DNA of 64,000 nt from Thermoanaerobaculia bacterium (lineage in GTDB: Bacteria; Acidobacteriota; Thermoanaerobaculia; Gp7-AA8), in contig DASUSL010000242.1 of assembly GCA_036375135.1 (NCBI GenBank), positions 6,388 through 70,387 on the forward strand. Reading direction: 5' to 3'. The notes below the pieces were generated by a model. The model was given only the letters and a program-made list of their open reading frames with translations, was not told the DNA's origin and searched no databases. Numbering within the stretch: position 1 is the first letter of the stretch; each line of letters opens with the position of its first letter. Made by a program: the position numbers and the translations under genes. Below are positions 5,347 through 11,984 of this stretch, piece by piece.

Positions 5347-6567
5347 GTGCCGCCGACACGGATGCATGTTGAAGGGATGCGCACCCTCACGGCTCTCCTC
5401 GCACTTGCGGCGGTTCCGCTCTTTGGCCAGGGTCGTCCCACCACCCCGGGACCTCCGGGCGCAGCCCCGCCGGCAACGGCGACGGTGAACGTTGACTGTG
5501 CCGCGGGCGGGACGCTCTCCGACGCACTGACTACGCCCGCGGGGCAATTGACCGTCGTCTTCACCGGCACGTGCGTGGAGGACGTCGCCATCCGCCGCGG
5601 CGACGTCACGCTTCGCGGCGGCGCCCCGGGTGCGACGATCGACGGCAGCACCCCGGCGGCCAACCACGCGCTCCTCGTCGAAGGAGGCCTGCGGGTGACT
5701 CTCTCCGACTTCGCGGTGCGCAACAGCCAGGGTCACGGCCTGACGATCAGTTTCTCCACCGTCGACGCCGCGAACCTCACCATCAGCGACAACGTGTTGG
5801 CCGGTGTGCTGGTCGACGGCTGCACGCTCCGGTTCACGAACGGGACGGTCAGCCGCAATCTGAGCGGCATCGTCGCCTCGGGCGGGAACGCGTTCGTCAG
5901 GCTCGGCGGCACGGTGGTGATCGCCGACAACACGCAGGATGGACTCTACTCCGGCGAAGGTGCGTACGTTTTTCAGTCGTCCGCCGTGGGCTCGAACCTG
6001 ACCGTCAGCGGGAGCGAGTACGGGATTACCGTAGAGAGCAACGGACAGTTTCACGTGTTCCGCGACGGGCTGACGGTGCGGCAGAACGACTTCGGCATCG
6101 TCGGCAACCGCGGCGCAATCATCGACGTCGCCATGCTGACTCTCACCGCGAACGGCCACGGCGTGCTGCTGATCGACTCATCGCTGCGCGCCGGCGGCTC
6201 GCTCACGAACAACACGGTTGCCGCCATCGAGGCACAGCGCGGCTCGCAGGTCGAGCTCCATCGCGGCCGCGTCACCACCACCACCGTCACTGGCAATCGT
6301 GTCGGCATCTCCGCGGACGCGCACTCGCAGATCATGCTCAGCGACACCACGGTCACCGGCAACGTCGAGCGCGATGTCCGCCTGGCCTTCGGCGCAACTC
6401 TGAGCCGCTACCAGAACGCGACCGTGGGCACGCTCGCCTGTGACGGTACGGAGCTGATCCGCCCTCCGGCAACGTGCGCCGCCACTTTTGCAATGACGCC
6501 GGCGCCGGACATGGCGTTGCGGCGTGCCGCTCGCGAGGAACGCTCCCGCGTTCGGGAGCGGGAATGA
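5347..6567 (+). CDS. secreted right-handed beta-helix repeat protein
   Basis: Signal peptide MRTLTALLALAAVPLFGQG (alternative start ATG 5377). Periodic repeats of about 22 aa (G..V..S.L.....) are typical of parallel beta-helix proteins. The product is uncertain. Confidence 0.55.
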   Translation: MPPTRMHVEGMRTLTALLALAAVPLFGQGRPTTPGPPGAAPPATATVNVDCAAGGTLSDALTTPAGQLTVVFTGTCVEDVAIRRGDVTLRGGAPGATIDGSTPAANHALLVEGGLRVTLSDFAVRNSQGHGLTISFSTVDAANLTISDNVLAGVLVDGCTLRFTNGTVSRNLSGIVASGGNAFVRLGGTVVIADNTQDGLYSGEGAYVFQSSAVGSNLTVSGSEYGITVESNGQFHVFRDGLTVRQNDFGIVGNRGAIIDVAMLTLTANGHGVLLIDSSLRAGGSLTNNTVAAIEAQRGSQVELHRGRVTTTTVTGNRVGISADAHSQIMLSDTTVTGNVERDVRLAFGATLSRYQNATVGTLACDGTELIRPPATCAATFAMTPAPDMALRRAAREERSRVRERE

Positions 6568-6586
6568 TGCTATAACCCGCGCCGAA

Positions 6587-6850
6587 ATGGCCGCCCGCCG
6601 CCCCAACGAGTTCGAGAAAGCCTTCCAGAACCTCGAGAAGATCGTGCAGCGTCTCGAGGGGGAAGAGCTGCCGCTCGACGAGTCGCTGCAGCTCTTCGAG
6701 GAAGGCATCCGCCTCTCCCGCTTCTGCCATCAGCGGCTCGAGGAAGTGGAGAAGAAGATCGAGCTGATCCTCGCCGACGCGAAGGGGCAGCCGGTGACCG
6801 AGCCGTTCGAGGAAGAGGAGCTGCACGACGACGAGGACATCGTCGAGTGA
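6587..6850 (+). CDS. xseB: exodeoxyribonuclease VII small subunit
   Basis: Internal ATG of ORF 6524..6850. FEKAFQNLEKIVQRLEGEELPLDESLQLFEEGIRL is the XseB signature. A GTGA overlap links it to ispA. Confidence 0.9.
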   Translation: MAARRPNEFEKAFQNLEKIVQRLEGEELPLDESLQLFEEGIRLSRFCHQRLEEVEKKIELILADAKGQPVTEPFEEEELHDDEDIVE

Positions 6851-7752
6851 ACCTCCGTCAGTACCTCGATGAAAAACGCGCGCTCGTCGACCGCACGCTC
6901 GACGCGCAGCTCCCGCCGGCCGGCACGAATCCTCCCGTCATTCACGAAGCGATGCGCTACGCGGTCCTCGGCGGCGGCAAACGCCTTCGCCCGATCCTGG
7001 CCATCGCCGCGGCCGAAGCCGTCGGCGCCGACGTGGAGCCGCTGCTCGTCCCCATCTGCACGCTGGAGCTGATCCACACCTACTCGCTCGTCCACGACGA
7101 CCTGCCGGCGCTCGACAACGACGATCTGCGCCGCGGACGGAAGACCACACACATCGTCTTCGGCGAGGCCATGGCCATCCTGGCCGGCGACGCGCTGCTC
7201 ACCGAGGCGTTCTCGTGGCTGGCGAAGCCGATCGCGGGAGTGGAGGCGTCGCGGCAGCTGCGGGCCATCGCGGAAGTGGCCACCGCCATCGACTCCACGG
7301 GGATGATCGGCGGACAGGTCGCGGACCTCCTTGCCGAGCGATCCCATCACGAGAGCGACGACCAGGACGCGCTGTTGCGGGAACTTCAATTCATCCATCG
7401 CAACAAGACCGGCAAGCTCTTCACGGCCTCGGTCGTGCTCGGCGGTCTCCTCGGCAATGCATCCGACGCGCAGCTCGACGCGCTCCGCCGTTATGCGGGC
7501 GCGCTCGGGCTCGCCTTCCAGATCGTCGATGATCTCCTTGACATCGAAGAGTCCTCTGCCATTCTGGGGAAGACCGCGGGGAAGGATGTTGCTCAGGGAA
7601 AGCTGACGTGGCCCGCGCTTCTGGGCGTCGATGCTGCACGTACGGAGGTGGACCGGCTGCTCCAGGAGGCCTTGGACAACGCTGATATCATCGCCGGTCC
7701 TGTGAATACCCTTGGGGCAATCGCACGTTACATTTGCGAGCGCCGCTCTTAG
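6847..7752 (+). CDS. ispA: (2E,6E)-farnesyl diphosphate synthase / polyprenyl synthetase
   Basis: It has both Asp-rich motifs (LVHDDLPALDNDDLRRG and QIVDDLLD) and sits in the conserved xseB-ispA-dxs order. Confidence 0.88.
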   Translation: MNLRQYLDEKRALVDRTLDAQLPPAGTNPPVIHEAMRYAVLGGGKRLRPILAIAAAEAVGADVEPLLVPICTLELIHTYSLVHDDLPALDNDDLRRGRKTTHIVFGEAMAILAGDALLTEAFSWLAKPIAGVEASRQLRAIAEVATAIDSTGMIGGQVADLLAERSHHESDDQDALLRELQFIHRNKTGKLFTASVVLGGLLGNASDAQLDALRRYAGALGLAFQIVDDLLDIEESSAILGKTAGKDVAQGKLTWPALLGVDAARTEVDRLLQEALDNADIIAGPVNTLGAIARYICERRS

Positions 7753-7776
7753 GCGCGTGACCGGAAAACTCAAAAG

Positions 7777-9798
7777 ATGCCAAGACTTCTCGATTCGATC
7801 GACACGCCGCGCGATCTGCGCAAGCTCGATCGCCGCCAGCTTCCGCAGGTTGCGCAGGAGATCCGCGACCAGATCATCGACGTCGTCTCCCGCGTCGGCG
7901 GCCACTTCGGCGGCAACCTCGGCATCGTCGAGCTGACGCTCGCGCTGCATTACGCCTTCGACACGCCGCGCGACCAGATCGTCTTCGACACCGGCCACCA
8001 GAGCTATCCGCACAAGCTCATCACCGGCCGGCGCGACACGTTCCACACCATCCGCCAGCACAACGGCATTTCCGGCTTCTGTAAGCGGGAGGAGTCGGAG
8101 TACGACGTCTTCAACGCCGGCCATGCCTCGACCTCCATCTCCGCGGCCCTCGGCATCGCCGTGGCGCGCGACTTCCGCAAGGAGGACTACCGCGTCGTGG
8201 CCATCATCGGCGACGGTGCGCTCTCCGGCGGCATCGCGCTGGAAGGACTGAATCAGGCCGGACACCTGAAGCGCCGCCTGATGATCGTCCTGAACGACAA
8301 CGACATGTCGATCTCGACCAACGTCGGCGCCATGTCGGGCTATCTCAACCAGATCATCAAGGGACAGCGCTACAACCAGGCCAAAGACCTGGCCAAGGGC
8401 GTGATGGACCGCGTCCCGCTCATCGGCGGCAAGCTGCACGGCCTCGCGCACGACATGGAGCAGGTGCTCAAGAACATGGTCGTGCCGGGCACGCTGTTCG
8501 AGGAGCTCGGCTTCAAGTACCTCGGGCCGTACGACGGTCACGATCTCGAGCTGCTGCTGAACCTCTTCAACGAGCACAAGGACTACGACGGCCCGATCCT
8601 CATCCACGTGATGACGAAGAAGGGGAAGGGCTACACGCCGGCGGAGAACAAGCCGATCTGGTCGCACGGCGTGACGGCGTTCGACGTCCCGACGGGCGAG
8701 GTCAAGAAGTCCGACAAGTCGCAGCCGCCGACGTACACCGCCGTCTTCGCCGACGCGCTGGTGGAACTGGCGAAGCACGACCCCAAGATCATCGGCGTGA
8801 CCGCGGCGATGCCGGAGGGGACGGGGCTGGACAAGTTCGGCAAGGCCTTCCCGGAGCGGATGTTCGACGTCGGGATCGCCGAGGAGCACGCGGTGACGTT
8901 CTGCGGCGGCATGGCCACGCAGGGGATGAAGCCGGTCGCGGCGATCTACTCGACGTTCCTGCAGCGCGCCTTCGATCAGGTCTTCCACGACGTGGCCATC
9001 ATGGATCTGCCGGTGGTCTTCGCCCTCGACCGCGGCGGCATCGCCGGCGCCGACGGCCCGACGCACCACGGCATCTACGACATGGCCTACCTGCGGATCT
9101 TCCCGAACATGGTGTGCATGGCCCCGAAGGACGAGAACGAGCTGCGGCACATGGTGAAGACCGCCTTCGAGTGCGGCCACCCCGCCTCGCTGCGCTACCC
9201 GCGCGGCAACGGCCTCGGCGTCCCGCTCGAGGAGATGCGCGCGCTTCCCGTCGGCAAGGGCGAAGTGCTCCGCGAAGGCGATCCCGCCATCGCCATCTTC
9301 GCCATCGGCAACGAAGTGCACGCCGCCATGCAGGCCGCCGAGATCCTGGCCAGGGAAGAAATTAACGTCACAGTAATCAATGCACGATTCATCAAGCCTT
9401 TGGATGATGAATTGATTACGAAATACTGTCAGCCTCATTCACGAGTCATTACCGTGGAAGAAGGTTCCCTGGCCGGCGGCTTCGGCAGCGCGGTCATGGA
9501 GCGCTGCGAGCAGCTGGGCATCCACAACGTGCAGTTCCACTGCATCGGCATCCCCGACGAGTACGTCCACCACGGTTCCCAGGACGTGCTGCGCGCGCAG
9601 TACGACCTGCATCCCGAGGGGATCGCGAAGCGGGTGCGGAAGTTCGTGGGGGAACAGAAGCTCGGCACCGTCGGCGACGTGGCGCGCATGATGGATGAGC
9701 TCACGAAAGACGTACCGGACGAAGAGTTCGAGAAACTGCCGACCTCCGACCGGATCGACGAAGTGGTGTACGGCTTGCGCCGTCGCGTAGCGAAGTAA
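7777..9798 (+). CDS. dxs: 1-deoxy-D-xylulose-5-phosphate synthase with a C-terminal extension of about 45 aa
   Basis: It has the TPP motif GDGALSGG...NDN, GHASTSISA and GPTHHG. The conserved Dxs end is near ...GIAKRVRKFV (about 9647), but the frame continues to 9798. Confidence 0.95.
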   Translation: MPRLLDSIDTPRDLRKLDRRQLPQVAQEIRDQIIDVVSRVGGHFGGNLGIVELTLALHYAFDTPRDQIVFDTGHQSYPHKLITGRRDTFHTIRQHNGISGFCKREESEYDVFNAGHASTSISAALGIAVARDFRKEDYRVVAIIGDGALSGGIALEGLNQAGHLKRRLMIVLNDNDMSISTNVGAMSGYLNQIIKGQRYNQAKDLAKGVMDRVPLIGGKLHGLAHDMEQVLKNMVVPGTLFEELGFKYLGPYDGHDLELLLNLFNEHKDYDGPILIHVMTKKGKGYTPAENKPIWSHGVTAFDVPTGEVKKSDKSQPPTYTAVFADALVELAKHDPKIIGVTAAMPEGTGLDKFGKAFPERMFDVGIAEEHAVTFCGGMATQGMKPVAAIYSTFLQRAFDQVFHDVAIMDLPVVFALDRGGIAGADGPTHHGIYDMAYLRIFPNMVCMAPKDENELRHMVKTAFECGHPASLRYPRGNGLGVPLEEMRALPVGKGEVLREGDPAIAIFAIGNEVHAAMQAAEILAREEINVTVINARFIKPLDDELITKYCQPHSRVITVEEGSLAGGFGSAVMERCEQLGIHNVQFHCIGIPDEYVHHGSQDVLRAQYDLHPEGIAKRVRKFVGEQKLGTVGDVARMMDELTKDVPDEEFEKLPTSDRIDEVVYGLRRRVAK

Positions 9799-10205
9799 TG
9801 CCACTGGTTCTCGTCGACACGTGGTTCTTCGTGGCGCACTTCAACCGCCGCGATCCGGACCACGACAGCGCCGCGCGGATGTGGCGCAGGATGGACCAGG
9901 CGCAGATGGTCACGCACGACGGGGTGCTTGCGGAGTTCCTCACGTTCTTCGCGGAGTTCGGTCCCACGATCCGGGAGAAGGCCGCGCGCACGGTTCGCAA
10001 CCTGCCGGTGTTGCGCGTCGAGGTCGTGGCCCAGGACCGCAGCCTTTTTCTGAAAGCGCTTGCCCTCTACGAGGAGCGCCCTGACAAGGGCTACTCGTTC
10101 GCAGACTGCATGTCCATGGTCGTGATGCGCGAGCGCGACATCACCCACGTCCTCACCAACGACCACCACTTCCGCCAGGAAGGCTTCACCGTCCTGAACC
10201 AATGA
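9798..10205 (+). CDS. vapC: PIN-domain ribonuclease toxin (VapC-like)
   Basis: 135 aa with the four PIN acidic positions (LVDTWF, LAEFL, FADCMS, TNDHHF). The start overlaps the dxs stop (TAATG) and the stop overlaps the tlyA start (ATGA). Confidence 0.8.
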   Translation: MPLVLVDTWFFVAHFNRRDPDHDSAARMWRRMDQAQMVTHDGVLAEFLTFFAEFGPTIREKAARTVRNLPVLRVEVVAQDRSLFLKALALYEERPDKGYSFADCMSMVVMRERDITHVLTNDHHFRQEGFTVLNQ

Positions 10206-10963
10206 AAAAGCAGCGCCTCGACGTGGTGCTGGTCGAGCGCGGACTCGTCGAGACGCGCTCGAAGGCGCAGTCGCTGATCATGGCCCGGCGGGTCCTCGTG
10301 AACGGGCAGTTCGTCGACAAGGCAGGGGCCACGGTCGCGGATGACGACGAGGTGCACGTCGCGGAGCTGGAGCATCCGTGGGTGGGGCGGGGCGGGATGA
10401 AGCTCGCGCACGCCTTCAAAACGTTTGCGATAAATGTTGACGGTAAGGTGTGCGCAGATATTGGCGCATCAACGGGTGGCTTCACCGACGTGATGCTCAA
10501 GCACGGGGCGGCGAAGGTGTACGCGATCGACGTCGGCTACGGGCAGCTCGACGTCTCGCTGCGCAACGATCCGCGCGTGGTCAACCGGGAGAAGGTGAAC
10601 GCGCGGTTTCTGGGACCGGAGAGCTTCGACGAGCCGATCGGGTTCGCCTCCATCGACGTCTCGTTCATCCCGCTGAAGCTGATCCTCCCCGCGGTGGTGA
10701 GCTTCCTCGACGGCGAGCTGGTGGCGCTGATCAAGCCGCAGTTCGAGGTGGGGAAGCACGAAGTCGGCAAAGGCGGCATCGTGCGCGACGAGGCCAAACG
10801 TCAGGCGGCGGTGAGTGGTGTCATCGACGTGGCGCGGGAGCTGGGGCTCGAGATGAAAGGCGTGATCGAGAGTCCGGTCAAGGGCGCCGAGGGGAACGTC
10901 GAGTTCCTCATGTACGCCGCGACAGGTAGTCGCGCAGACCGTCCCGCCACGACTCCGGAGTGA
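10202..10963 (+). CDS. tlyA: TlyA-family rRNA 2'-O-methyltransferase
   Basis: It has an S4-like N-terminus (RLDVVLVERGLVETRSKAQSLI) and the SAM motif DIGASTGGFTD. Confidence 0.88.
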   Translation: MKKQRLDVVLVERGLVETRSKAQSLIMARRVLVNGQFVDKAGATVADDDEVHVAELEHPWVGRGGMKLAHAFKTFAINVDGKVCADIGASTGGFTDVMLKHGAAKVYAIDVGYGQLDVSLRNDPRVVNREKVNARFLGPESFDEPIGFASIDVSFIPLKLILPAVVSFLDGELVALIKPQFEVGKHEVGKGGIVRDEAKRQAAVSGVIDVARELGLEMKGVIESPVKGAEGNVEFLMYAATGSRADRPATTPE

Positions 10964-11780
10964 CGCCGGTCAGGCGCTCGTAGCGCTCCGTCGACAGCAC
11001 CGAGTACGCCGGGCGTTTCGCCGGACGAGGGAACTCCTCCGTCGACACCGGCACGACCTCCGTCGCCGATCCTTCCGCGATCGCGCGCGCAAAGTCGTAC
11101 CACGAGCATTCCTCCGCATCCGCGTAATGCACGACGCCCTGGGCATCCTGCAGCGCGAGCCGCACGACCGCGCGTGCGAGGTGCGGCGTGTACGTCGGAC
11201 GTCCGCGCTGGTCGCTGACCACGCGCAGCGGGTTCGTCCCCTTGCGGATCTGGTTGCGGATGGCCTCCACGAAGTTCGGGCCGTGCACGCCGAAGAGCCA
11301 CGACGTGCGCACGATGCAGTGCTTCTCCGCGTGCGAGGCCGCGATCTCGCCGAGGAGTTTCGAGCGGCCGTAGGCGGACAGCGGGTTCGTCTGGTCGTTG
11401 ACTTCGTAGGGAGACGTCTTAGAGCCGTCGAAGACGAAGTCGGTGGAGAGCTGGATCAGTCGCGCGCCGGCCTCGTTCGCCGCGGCGGCGAGGAGCTCGA
11501 CCGCCGAGCCGTTGATGGCATTCGCGGCCGCCTCTTCCTGCTCGGCGAGGTCGACTTTCGTGTACGCGGCGCAGTTGATGATGACGGTGGGAGCGTGCTC
11601 GCGCACGGCGGCATTCACGAGACGCGAGTCAGTGACGTCGAGCTCGCTCCGGCTCAGCGCGACGACTTGCTCATCGCGCGCGGCGAGCTCGTCCTGCAGG
11701 TCGGCGCCCAGCATCCCCCCGGCACCGGTGATCATCCAGCGGGCACGGCCCGCGGCGCTGGTTGCCCAAGGCTTCGGCAC
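10908..11780 (-). CDS. rfbD: dTDP-4-dehydrorhamnose reductase
   Basis: It has the Rossmann motif ITGAGGMLG, YGRSK and STDFVFDG. An alternative start is at 11735. Confidence 0.85.
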   Translation of the reverse strand: MPKPWATSAAGRARWMITGAGGMLGADLQDELAARDEQVVALSRSELDVTDSRLVNAAVREHAPTVIINCAAYTKVDLAEQEEAAANAINGSAVELLAAAANEAGARLIQLSTDFVFDGSKTSPYEVNDQTNPLSAYGRSKLLGEIAASHAEKHCIVRTSWLFGVHGPNFVEAIRNQIRKGTNPLRVVSDQRGRPTYTPHLARAVVRLALQDAQGVVHYADAEECSWYDFARAIAEGSATEVVPVSTEEFPRPAKRPAYSVLSTERYERLTGVTPESWRDGLRDYLSRRT

Positions 11781-11795
11781 GCTAGCCGTGTTGCC

Positions 11796-11984
11796 TCAGG
11801 CCTTGTCGTCGGACTTCGGCAGAGCGGGCTTCTCGTCCTTGCCCTTGAGGCCGTCACGGAAGTTCGAAATGCCTTCGCCGAGGCCTTTGCCGAGCTGCGG
11901 CAGTTTGCTCGCGCCGAAGATCACGACCACGATCGCGAGGATGAGGACCAACTCCATGGGACCAAAACCGAACATGAGCATCAT
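11796..11984 (-). CDS. tatA: twin-arginine translocase subunit TatA/E
   Basis: [29 protein letters not shown]. By GGAGG spacing the start is probably the fourth codon (11975). Confidence 0.9.

Follow-up and report, generated by a model that had tools for sequence, protein, structure and literature searches.

An antitoxin-type module at the C-terminus of Dxs, coupled to a VapC-type PIN protein in Thermoanaerobaculia, points to a toxin–antitoxin system tethered to an essential enzyme

What holds a VapC-type PIN-domain protein in check when its gene is wedged between two housekeeping genes and no antitoxin gene stands beside it? The question is raised by a stretch of 64,000 nucleotides (nt) from a Thermoanaerobaculia bacterium (contig DASUSL010000242.1), referred to here in its full length as the window, in which such a gene lies between dxs and tlyA. 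Type II antitoxins are known as small and labile DNA-binding proteins that regulate their own expression, and a preliminary description of this DNA had offered two less usual answers, namely that Dxs itself carries the antitoxin or that an antitoxin peptide is translated from within dxs. We consider it probable that the locus is a VapBC-type type II toxin–antitoxin system with its antitoxin tethered to the essential enzyme Dxs. Sequence comparison establishes the elements of this reading, which are an antitoxin-type module homologous to free-standing antitoxins, a conserved fusion of that module to Dxs, co-variation of the Dxs tail with the PIN protein, and overlapping gene junctions. The features concerned are listed below in positions of the window.

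7777–9798, + strand: Dxs open reading frame (ORF), 673 amino acids (aa)
7777–9648, + strand: Dxs catalytic core (1-deoxy-D-xylulose-5-phosphate synthase), residues 1–624; TIGR00204, Pfam DXP_synthase_N, Transket_pyr and Transketolase_C
9649–9666, + strand: linker GEQKLG, short and variable, from the Dxs core to the antitoxin-type module
9667–9795, + strand: antitoxin-type C-terminal module, residues 631–673; hhalign and a hidden Markov model (HMM) of free members only
9688–9693, + strand: in-frame ATG-ATG within the module, candidate internal start, not conserved
9796–9800, + strand: TAATG, dxs stop overlapping the PIN start, read in the sequence
9798–10205, + strand: VapC-type PIN-domain gene, 135 aa, presumed toxin; PF01850, E=5e-13
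10202–10205, + strand: ATGA, PIN stop overlapping the tlyA start, read in the sequence
10202–10963, + strand: tlyA (rRNA cytidine-2'-O-methyltransferase), downstream flank; TIGR00478, 243 bits, Pfam FtsJ and S4

The placement of the PIN gene and its two overlapping junctions, TAATG and ATGA, are as first described. The Dxs ORF is a full-length match to the equivalog model TIGR00204 (dxs), with 839 bits against a cut-off of 466 and residues 7–624 aligned to model positions 3–615/616, and its last Pfam domain, Transketolase_C, stops at residue 616. Beyond the end of the family model the protein continues for 49 aa, GEQKLGTVGDVARMMDELTKDVPDEEFEKLPTSDRIDEVVYGLRRRVAK (GEQKLG...RRRVAK, 9649–9795), in agreement with an earlier estimate of about 45–50 aa past the conserved end, and this extension has no match in Pfam or NCBIfam. 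Its module comprises a predicted helix, TVGDVARMMDELTKDV (9667–9714), followed by PDEEFEKLP (9715–9741), TSDRIDEVVYG (9742–9774) and a basic end, LRRRVAK (9775–9795). Across Dxs tails, which end in ...SD(H/R)IDE(V/F)VYG-x-(K/R)R-x-x-K, module column D31 is invariant and columns P17, S27, E32, V34 and G36 are at least 90% conserved.

The nature of this extension is indicated by relatives of the PIN protein outside the clade. Homologues that are 40–50% identical, from Entotheonella, Solibacteraceae, Ignavibacteriota, Deinococcales and Bryobacteraceae, are not encoded beside dxs, and directly upstream of each lies a small ORF (56–137 aa) whose stop overlaps the PIN start, the classic antitoxin position. 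Free antitoxins of this family also stand upstream of PIN genes in Planctomycetota, Cyanobacteria and archaea. Their N-termini are interchangeable, being AF2212-like (PF01954), ribbon-helix-helix (RHH) or without any recognisable domain, and their common C-terminal module consists of an amphipathic helix, (I/V)P-x-EE(L/W), LP and D-x-x-(L/I)YG-x-PKR (more broadly D-x-x-(L/I/V)YG with basic residues after it), a layout shared by the Dxs tails. Alignment of 47 Dxs tails with eight free modules by hhalign gave a probability of 94.9% and E=4e-8 over 41 columns. A profile built from tails and free modules together matched 1696 database proteins at E<=0.01, and the best 120 of these are all "hypothetical proteins" of 47–84 aa without a Pfam domain over the module. 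An HMM built from those 120 free proteins alone, which contains no Dxs tails although its members were retrieved by a query that included tails, recognised the Dxs tail among the ORFs of the window at E=1.6e-8, the next ORF following at E=3.5.

No separate antitoxin accompanies the PIN gene, as first noted, at least within the window, where the module HMM matches only the Dxs tail among 1022 ORFs; nor does the window hold another PIN of the same subfamily. A DNA-binding domain N-terminal to the module was not found with Pfam or NCBIfam, that place being occupied by a complete Dxs, and the smallest free members likewise lack one, some of them, for example the 47-aa LQRPRRPIWEEILELTKDIPPEELDKLPVDGAAQIDHYLYGAPKRPE, hardly exceeding the module itself (P0229 has 47 aa and P0121 has 53 aa). 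Homology thus supports the Dxs tail as the putative toxin-binding module of this antitoxin family, with Dxs replacing the usual DNA-binding head. The resemblance to the unnamed free family, whose members end in ...(I/V)PxEELxxLPxDxxxxHDHY(L/I)YGxPKR or ...SDRIDEVVYG, extends to the module, to the overlapping junction and to a PIN of the subfamily with C-terminus LTNDHHFRQEGF immediately downstream. The free members differ in being small stand-alone proteins of 47–137 aa with an RHH, an AF2212-like or no N-terminal domain, found in varied and apparently mobile contexts, whereas the module here forms residues 631–673 of a 673-aa enzyme.

The two groups also share tandem modules. A second copy, partial or complete, is present within the Dxs tails of L020 (OY970380.1, 112 aa), where ...DVPDDEIKRLPGSDHVNEG... 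precedes the full module, of L014 (94 aa) and of L116 (86 aa); among free proteins, P0248 (189 aa) strings four modules together and L160 two. With more than one module, an antitoxin might occupy both active sites of a PIN dimer or bind several toxins.

Association of the module with the PIN subfamily is not confined to these loci. Each of the four free members that were looked up (P0246, P0123, P0189 and P0225) has an overlapping PIN of the same subfamily behind it, one of them decayed, and at least 120 further loci with the free-type motif have a median ORF length of 88 aa, at least 78 of 123 carrying a same-subfamily PIN downstream. Free antitoxins with the Dxs-type ending ...IDEVVYG and a PIN downstream occur in Acidimicrobiales, uncultured Actinomycetes, other metagenome-assembled genomes (MAGs) and methanogens, and no PIN was detected behind similar free proteins of Pirellulales and elsewhere. 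Among the loci listed from pattern scans of genome contigs (120 with the free-type and 119 with the Dxs-type motif), small proteins and Dxs are the only hosts with a downstream PIN; longer motif-bearing "ORFs" that might have been other hosts were rejected as over-extended starts in GC-rich DNA or as chance motifs without a PIN. A word-indexed search with the 49-aa tail alone returned no candidates, relatives being found only with the profile of tails and free modules, and a phmmer search of the tail against 1.84 billion representatives gave nine matches, namely fragments of Dxs, a small number of free antitoxins and a protein with four modules, with no other enzyme fusion among them. On a 665-bp ENA contig (L129, protein P0242), a PSCyt2/DUF1549-type fragment continues in frame (...AEVKAFV|GERRE...) as a Dxs-type tail, behind which lies an overlapping PIN. 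This is either a second fusion partner, joined via a short FVGE microhomology, or a chimeric assembly, and the contig is too short to tell.

Is the fusion a property of this contig or of a lineage? A scan of one genome per species with the PIN protein and Dxs residues 425–624 as queries yielded 126 loci, 87 of them distinct and nearly all from Thermoanaerobaculia (Acidobacteriota). An intact PIN in the order ispA-dxs-PIN-tlyA is found at 56 loci, and the Dxs tail is in frame in all 56. The linker varies in sequence and in length (about 6 to about 70 residues), and the total extension, 45–112 aa and always in frame, has 17 different lengths among fused loci with never a stop or frame change, a pattern that unselected insertions and deletions could not produce. 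The dxs stop and PIN start overlap by 1 nt in 44 of 54 orthologous loci and are directly adjacent in nine more, so that antitoxin-type coding lies immediately upstream of the PIN gene in 53 of the 54, as in VapBC but not as a separate gene. The ATGA overlap between PIN and tlyA is kept in nearly all orthologous loci. Median ratios of nonsynonymous to synonymous substitution (dN/dS) of 0.40 for the tail and 0.29 for the PIN gene place both under purifying selection.

These loci were recovered in many independent studies, and two of the loci lie on complete long-read chromosomes (OY970380.1 and OY970284.1). In addition, two short Logan contigs from other sequencing runs encode the exact PIN protein; at 99.9% and 99.5% identity to the window, they too read from Dxs into the tail without interruption, which confirms that the fusion is not an assembly error. 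It is hardly credible that the extension is an artefact of assembly or a functionless relic of a lost stop codon, a view that can draw only on the metagenomic origin of every sequence. The fusion is reproduced across runs, studies and long-read chromosomes, its motif columns are at least 90% conserved at a dN/dS of 0.40, its frame is held across 17 lengths, and the tail decays only where the PIN is gone. A literature search turned up no description of Dxs, or of any metabolic enzyme, as the bearer of an antitoxin module.

The conserved frame also bears on how the module is made. Under the second answer of the preliminary description, a free antitoxin peptide would be translated from an internal start in dxs, for instance the ATG at 9688, where an in-frame ATG-ATG is indeed present; a Met codon within the helix occurs in about half of the orthologues, and a GTG at the last valine of the core in about 60%. 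In a codon-marked alignment of 56 tails, however, no ATG, GTG or TTG is conserved at any column, and several loci (L018, L036, L028 and L010) offer no suitably placed start codon from the core end to the module. No Shine-Dalgarno-like sequence precedes 9688, a peptide initiated there would miss the conserved T-x-G-D/E start of the module, and an independent peptide would not keep 17 linker lengths in frame with Dxs. Internal initiation is therefore very unlikely, and the proposed start at 9688 is not borne out.

A different route to a free peptide is that a protease removes the module from Dxs after synthesis, which would make a peptide of about 45 aa the working antitoxin and Dxs the mere carrier of its synthesis. 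Free members little larger than the module (P0229 and P0121) show that such a size exists in the family, and the variable linker looks unstructured; no conserved cleavage motif is visible in it, however, the linkers having no common sequence over their range of lengths. We regard this as improbable, and it is a variant of the tethered system rather than its opposite.

If the tail neutralises the PIN protein, the two might be expected to change together. Mean pairwise protein distances are 0.55 for the tail and 0.46 for the PIN protein, as against 0.16–0.17 for the adjacent Dxs core and TlyA, so that evolution is roughly threefold faster in tail and PIN than in their flanks. Distance matrices of tail and PIN correlate at r=0.51, compared with r=0.19 between the tail and its own Dxs core, and the partial correlation of tail and PIN controlling for both flanks is r=0.48 (Mantel p<=5e-4). 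In pairs of loci with 92–100% identical flanks, identity falls to 20–60% precisely where the Dxs core ends, remains low across the tail and some three quarters of the PIN gene, and recovers in the last ~100 nt of the latter. Synonymous divergence (dS) between L020 and L027 is 1.5 in the PIN gene and 0.2 in the flanks, and the nearest relative by cassette is not the nearest by flanks in 44 of 50 loci; for the window locus these are L003 and L004, respectively. High synonymous divergence together with this mismatch of neighbours points to exchange of whole tail–PIN alleles between lineages, apparently by recombination in the conserved flanks of dxs and of tlyA and the PIN 3' end, and not just to fast drift.

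As first noted, all four acidic catalytic positions are present in the 135-aa PIN protein, and these residues (D7, E46, D103 and D122) show no variation among 66 homologues and at least 95% conservation across 54 orthologues, as is typical of PIN-domain toxins of VapBC systems. An AF2 model built on the 66 homologues reached a predicted local distance difference test (pLDDT) score of 94.7. In a Foldseek comparison with the Protein Data Bank (PDB) the best match of this model is VapC20 of Mycobacterium tuberculosis (template modelling (TM) score 0.83–0.86, root-mean-square deviation ~2 Å), followed by AF1683, then by VapBC26 (TM 0.81, rank 5), the next-closest VapC that is characterised, and after it by other VapC toxins; VapC20 is also the best PDB match by sequence (E=1e-8). 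Both VapC20 and VapC26 cut 23S rRNA at its sarcin-ricin loop (PMC5175351). Our best guess at the target of the PIN protein is this loop, although resemblance to VapC20 and VapC26 at only 19–27% identity makes it a weak lead.

One could instead take the PIN protein for a domesticated housekeeping ribonuclease, acting for example on rRNA together with TlyA, with the Dxs tail as its tether or regulator and not its neutraliser. The gene does lie within a housekeeping operon, with translational coupling to the gene of an rRNA methyltransferase, some two thirds of the sampled related genomes possess it, and its nearest characterised relatives act on 23S rRNA. We nevertheless find this interpretation distinctly improbable, because the threefold faster evolution of tail and PIN, their residence in a recombining hypervariable island, their repeated loss, and the presence of the same module–PIN pair, as a mobile cassette of two genes, across unrelated phyla and contexts are typical of toxin–antitoxin and other conflict genes and not of housekeeping genes.

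The pattern of loss is consistent with a harmful PIN protein and a protective tail. The comparison of Dxs C-termini in relatives with and without the PIN gene, which had been proposed as a check, gave the 56 fused loci described above, 24 genomes with neither tail nor PIN, in which Dxs ends 11–19 residues past the core in unrelated sequence, and five genomes that keep a tail without a working PIN. In three of the five (L058, L077 and L120), in-frame internal deletions have shrunk the PIN gene to mini-ORFs of 42, 52 and 23 codons with both overlapping junctions kept, the ATGA overlap with tlyA among them; the other two (L075 and L081) have no PIN left, and their tails are themselves truncated or degenerate. 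No credible genome among the 87 distinct loci has a PIN without a tail, the one locus scored as such (L070) belonging to a long-read MAG in which tail, PIN and tlyA all carry frameshifts. Retention of the tail without the PIN on five occasions, and never the reverse, is the direction expected if the PIN is harmful without the tail. It had been argued that occurrence of the same tail in genomes lacking the PIN gene would speak against an antitoxin. The tail does occur in five such genomes, but three PIN remnants and two decaying tails are what would be expected of an orphaned antitoxin and do not refute the proposal. The losses were placed on a rough Dxs tree of 200 residues.

A similar picture is given by the P0189 loci L133 and L134, where an RHH-type free antitoxin that is widespread (48 blocks of the contig index) remains intact and the PIN behind it is frameshifted or truncated, the same order of decay, toxin first, as in the Dxs loci. 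Other changes at the dxs–tlyA junction are of a different kind. In a clade without the PIN (L067, L088, L091, L113, L119 and L123), the slot is taken by a different ORF of ~150 aa that overlaps the dxs stop, is hydrophobic at its N-terminus, contains a conserved IPDPPSSC motif and matches nothing in Pfam, and the junction seems to be a recurrent insertion site. At L109 (JBBRNB010000001.1), Dxs has a 19-aa extension, SGGELGATNVFGIRRTATN, that resembles a tail with an internal deletion (its neighbour L033 has ...GATLGEVAE...VVYGLRRTATK); within the following 2.5 kb there is no PIN and no tlyA, which suggests a larger rearrangement of this site.

Homology to free antitoxins, a frame held over 17 lengths, co-variation with the PIN and asymmetric loss thus converge, as far as comparison can indicate, on the first answer of the preliminary description, that Dxs itself carries the antitoxin. 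Several points weigh against this reading. Classical antitoxins are protease-labile, whereas an essential enzyme is expected to be stable, which is a difficulty for release of the toxin. The asymmetry of loss is based on five events only (~p=0.03), and the raised dS of the cassette, whose tail and PIN are passed on together, could in part inflate the co-variation signal. The absence of a second antitoxin holds for the 64-kb window, and one may be encoded elsewhere in the genome; all sequences are metagenome-derived.

How might a tethered antitoxin of this kind work? We propose that an antitoxin lost its own gene and its DNA-binding head, leaving its toxin-neutralising C-terminal module as the last ~43 residues of Dxs. 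A ribosome would complete Dxs with its tail, re-initiate at TAATG to make the PIN protein, and then re-initiate at ATGA to make TlyA. Since PIN synthesis would depend on termination at the end of the tail, the toxin would appear only after an antitoxin-bearing Dxs had been completed, and probably in smaller amounts. The tail helix and the extended basic ...IDEVVYG-x-RRR end would then bind the PIN protein and plug its acidic active site in the manner of VapB C-termini, so that the PIN would be held inactive on Dxs. In solved VapBC complexes the antitoxin C-terminus consists of a helix and an extended segment with arginines that enter the PIN active site (PMC5389673), a description that the predicted helix and basic end of the tail would fit. 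A search of the module profile against the PDB gave chance matches only (best E=0.066), with no solved structure containing the module, and blockage of the active site by the tail is proposed on the basis of homology to free antitoxins and of tail–PIN co-variation. If the tail were clipped, or the supply of Dxs halted, free PIN would cut RNA of the translation machinery; phage interference may be a further trigger of its release. With no DNA-binding head, the usual autoregulation would be replaced by operon expression and translational coupling. Retention of mini-ORFs after deletion of the PIN suggests that the PIN frame also serves to relay translation to tlyA.

What the tether is for can be put in several ways. 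It may be a working switch, in which the amount or integrity of Dxs would set the activity of a ribosome-cutting ribonuclease and so link the supply of membrane and cell-wall precursors to translation, an idea that we think rather unlikely. Tail–PIN alleles at one fixed site could act as specificity types, and might underlie incompatibility, kin discrimination or an anti-phage polymorphism. In a milder version the locus may be a selfish cassette made hard to delete by having its antitoxin inside an essential gene and its toxin ORF as a translational relay for tlyA.

Comparison with known systems defines what is familiar and what is new here. VapBC20 and VapBC26 of M. tuberculosis (PDB 5WZ4/5WZF and 5X3T) share with the present locus a PIN toxin of ~135 aa with four conserved acidic residues, antitoxin coding directly upstream with an overlapping stop and start, and an antitoxin whose working part is a C-terminal helix with an extended basic segment (PMC5389673), which in our case is predicted from sequence. 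The locus departs from them in having no separate antitoxin gene, the putative neutralising module being the C-terminus of an essential enzyme with a 624-residue core, and no DNA-binding domain, so that autoregulation by the complex is not expected; its toxin gene is moreover embedded between two housekeeping genes and would relay translation downstream. It is thus of the VapBC kind in toxin, position and coupling, but not in having a separate antitoxin protein with a DNA-binding domain. The TAA stop at 9796–9798 parts the tail from the PIN protein, whose reading frame differs from that of Dxs, and the two are not a single polypeptide.

EzeT is reportedly a toxin–antitoxin fused in a single polypeptide. 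With fused systems of this sort, such as CapRel-SJ46 as outlined in PMC9712102, the Dxs-borne module has in common that the antitoxin element is not free-standing; there, toxin and antitoxin form one chain, whereas here a stop separates them and the antitoxin sits on an unrelated enzyme. Toxin–antitoxin–chaperone (TAC) systems, in the outline given in PMC5105189, are tripartite and similarly tie the fate of the antitoxin to a larger cellular protein through a C-terminal extension, so that control of the toxin comes to depend on this protein, but that extension belongs to a separate antitoxin and binds a SecB-like chaperone, while the module described here is covalently part of a metabolic enzyme and involves no chaperone.

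The VapBC kind itself is known; what is new is the Dxs-borne antitoxin module, the unmodelled module family to which it belongs, and an unusual population structure. On the reading favoured here, an antitoxin has shrunk to a toxin-binding peptide attached to an enzyme of essential metabolism, and over 50 species-level genomes of a group of soil Acidobacteria have kept this arrangement. If the tail does neutralise the PIN protein, antitoxin modules would be portable peptides that unrelated proteins can host, systems of this kind would be missed by searches for gene pairs, and control of the toxin could hang on how much of a housekeeping enzyme is present and not on proteolysis and autoregulation of the antitoxin. 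The module family is large, with at least 1696 database matches, and has no Pfam or NCBIfam model. Dozens of divergent tail–PIN allele pairs in near-identical flanks furthermore constitute a natural experiment on the evolution of cognate specificity.

The surrounding genes are those of an ordinary housekeeping operon, of which two precede dxs directly.

6524–6850, + strand: xseB, upstream in the same operon; Pfam Exonuc_VII_S
6847–7752, + strand: ispA, upstream in the same operon; Pfam polyprenyl_synt

The xseB and ispA codons overlap, and the gene order is the same in all related loci. The genes of the conserved order xseA-xseB-ispA-dxs-tlyA given in the preliminary description are all present, with xseA likewise confirmed upstream of dxs, but xseA and xseB are not adjacent. 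Between them lies an ORF of 406 aa (5347–6567, + strand) that begins like a signal peptide and weakly matches NosD/beta-helix proteins (E=5e-4, short of the Pfam cut-off); its 3' end overlaps the first possible xseB start by 44 nt. A promoter and terminator scan predicted none inside dxs-PIN-tlyA, with overall counts not above those of shuffled controls. Two long antisense ORFs, one of 902 aa over ispA-dxs (6730–9438, - strand) and one of 255 aa over the tail and PIN (9435–10202, - strand), are of a type usual in GC-rich DNA and were treated as non-coding, the latter because conserved plus-strand genes fully account for the region. The end of the operon is marked 3' of tlyA by an RmlD-type dTDP-4-dehydrorhamnose reductase gene and tatA (10908–11984, - strand), an ordinary context.

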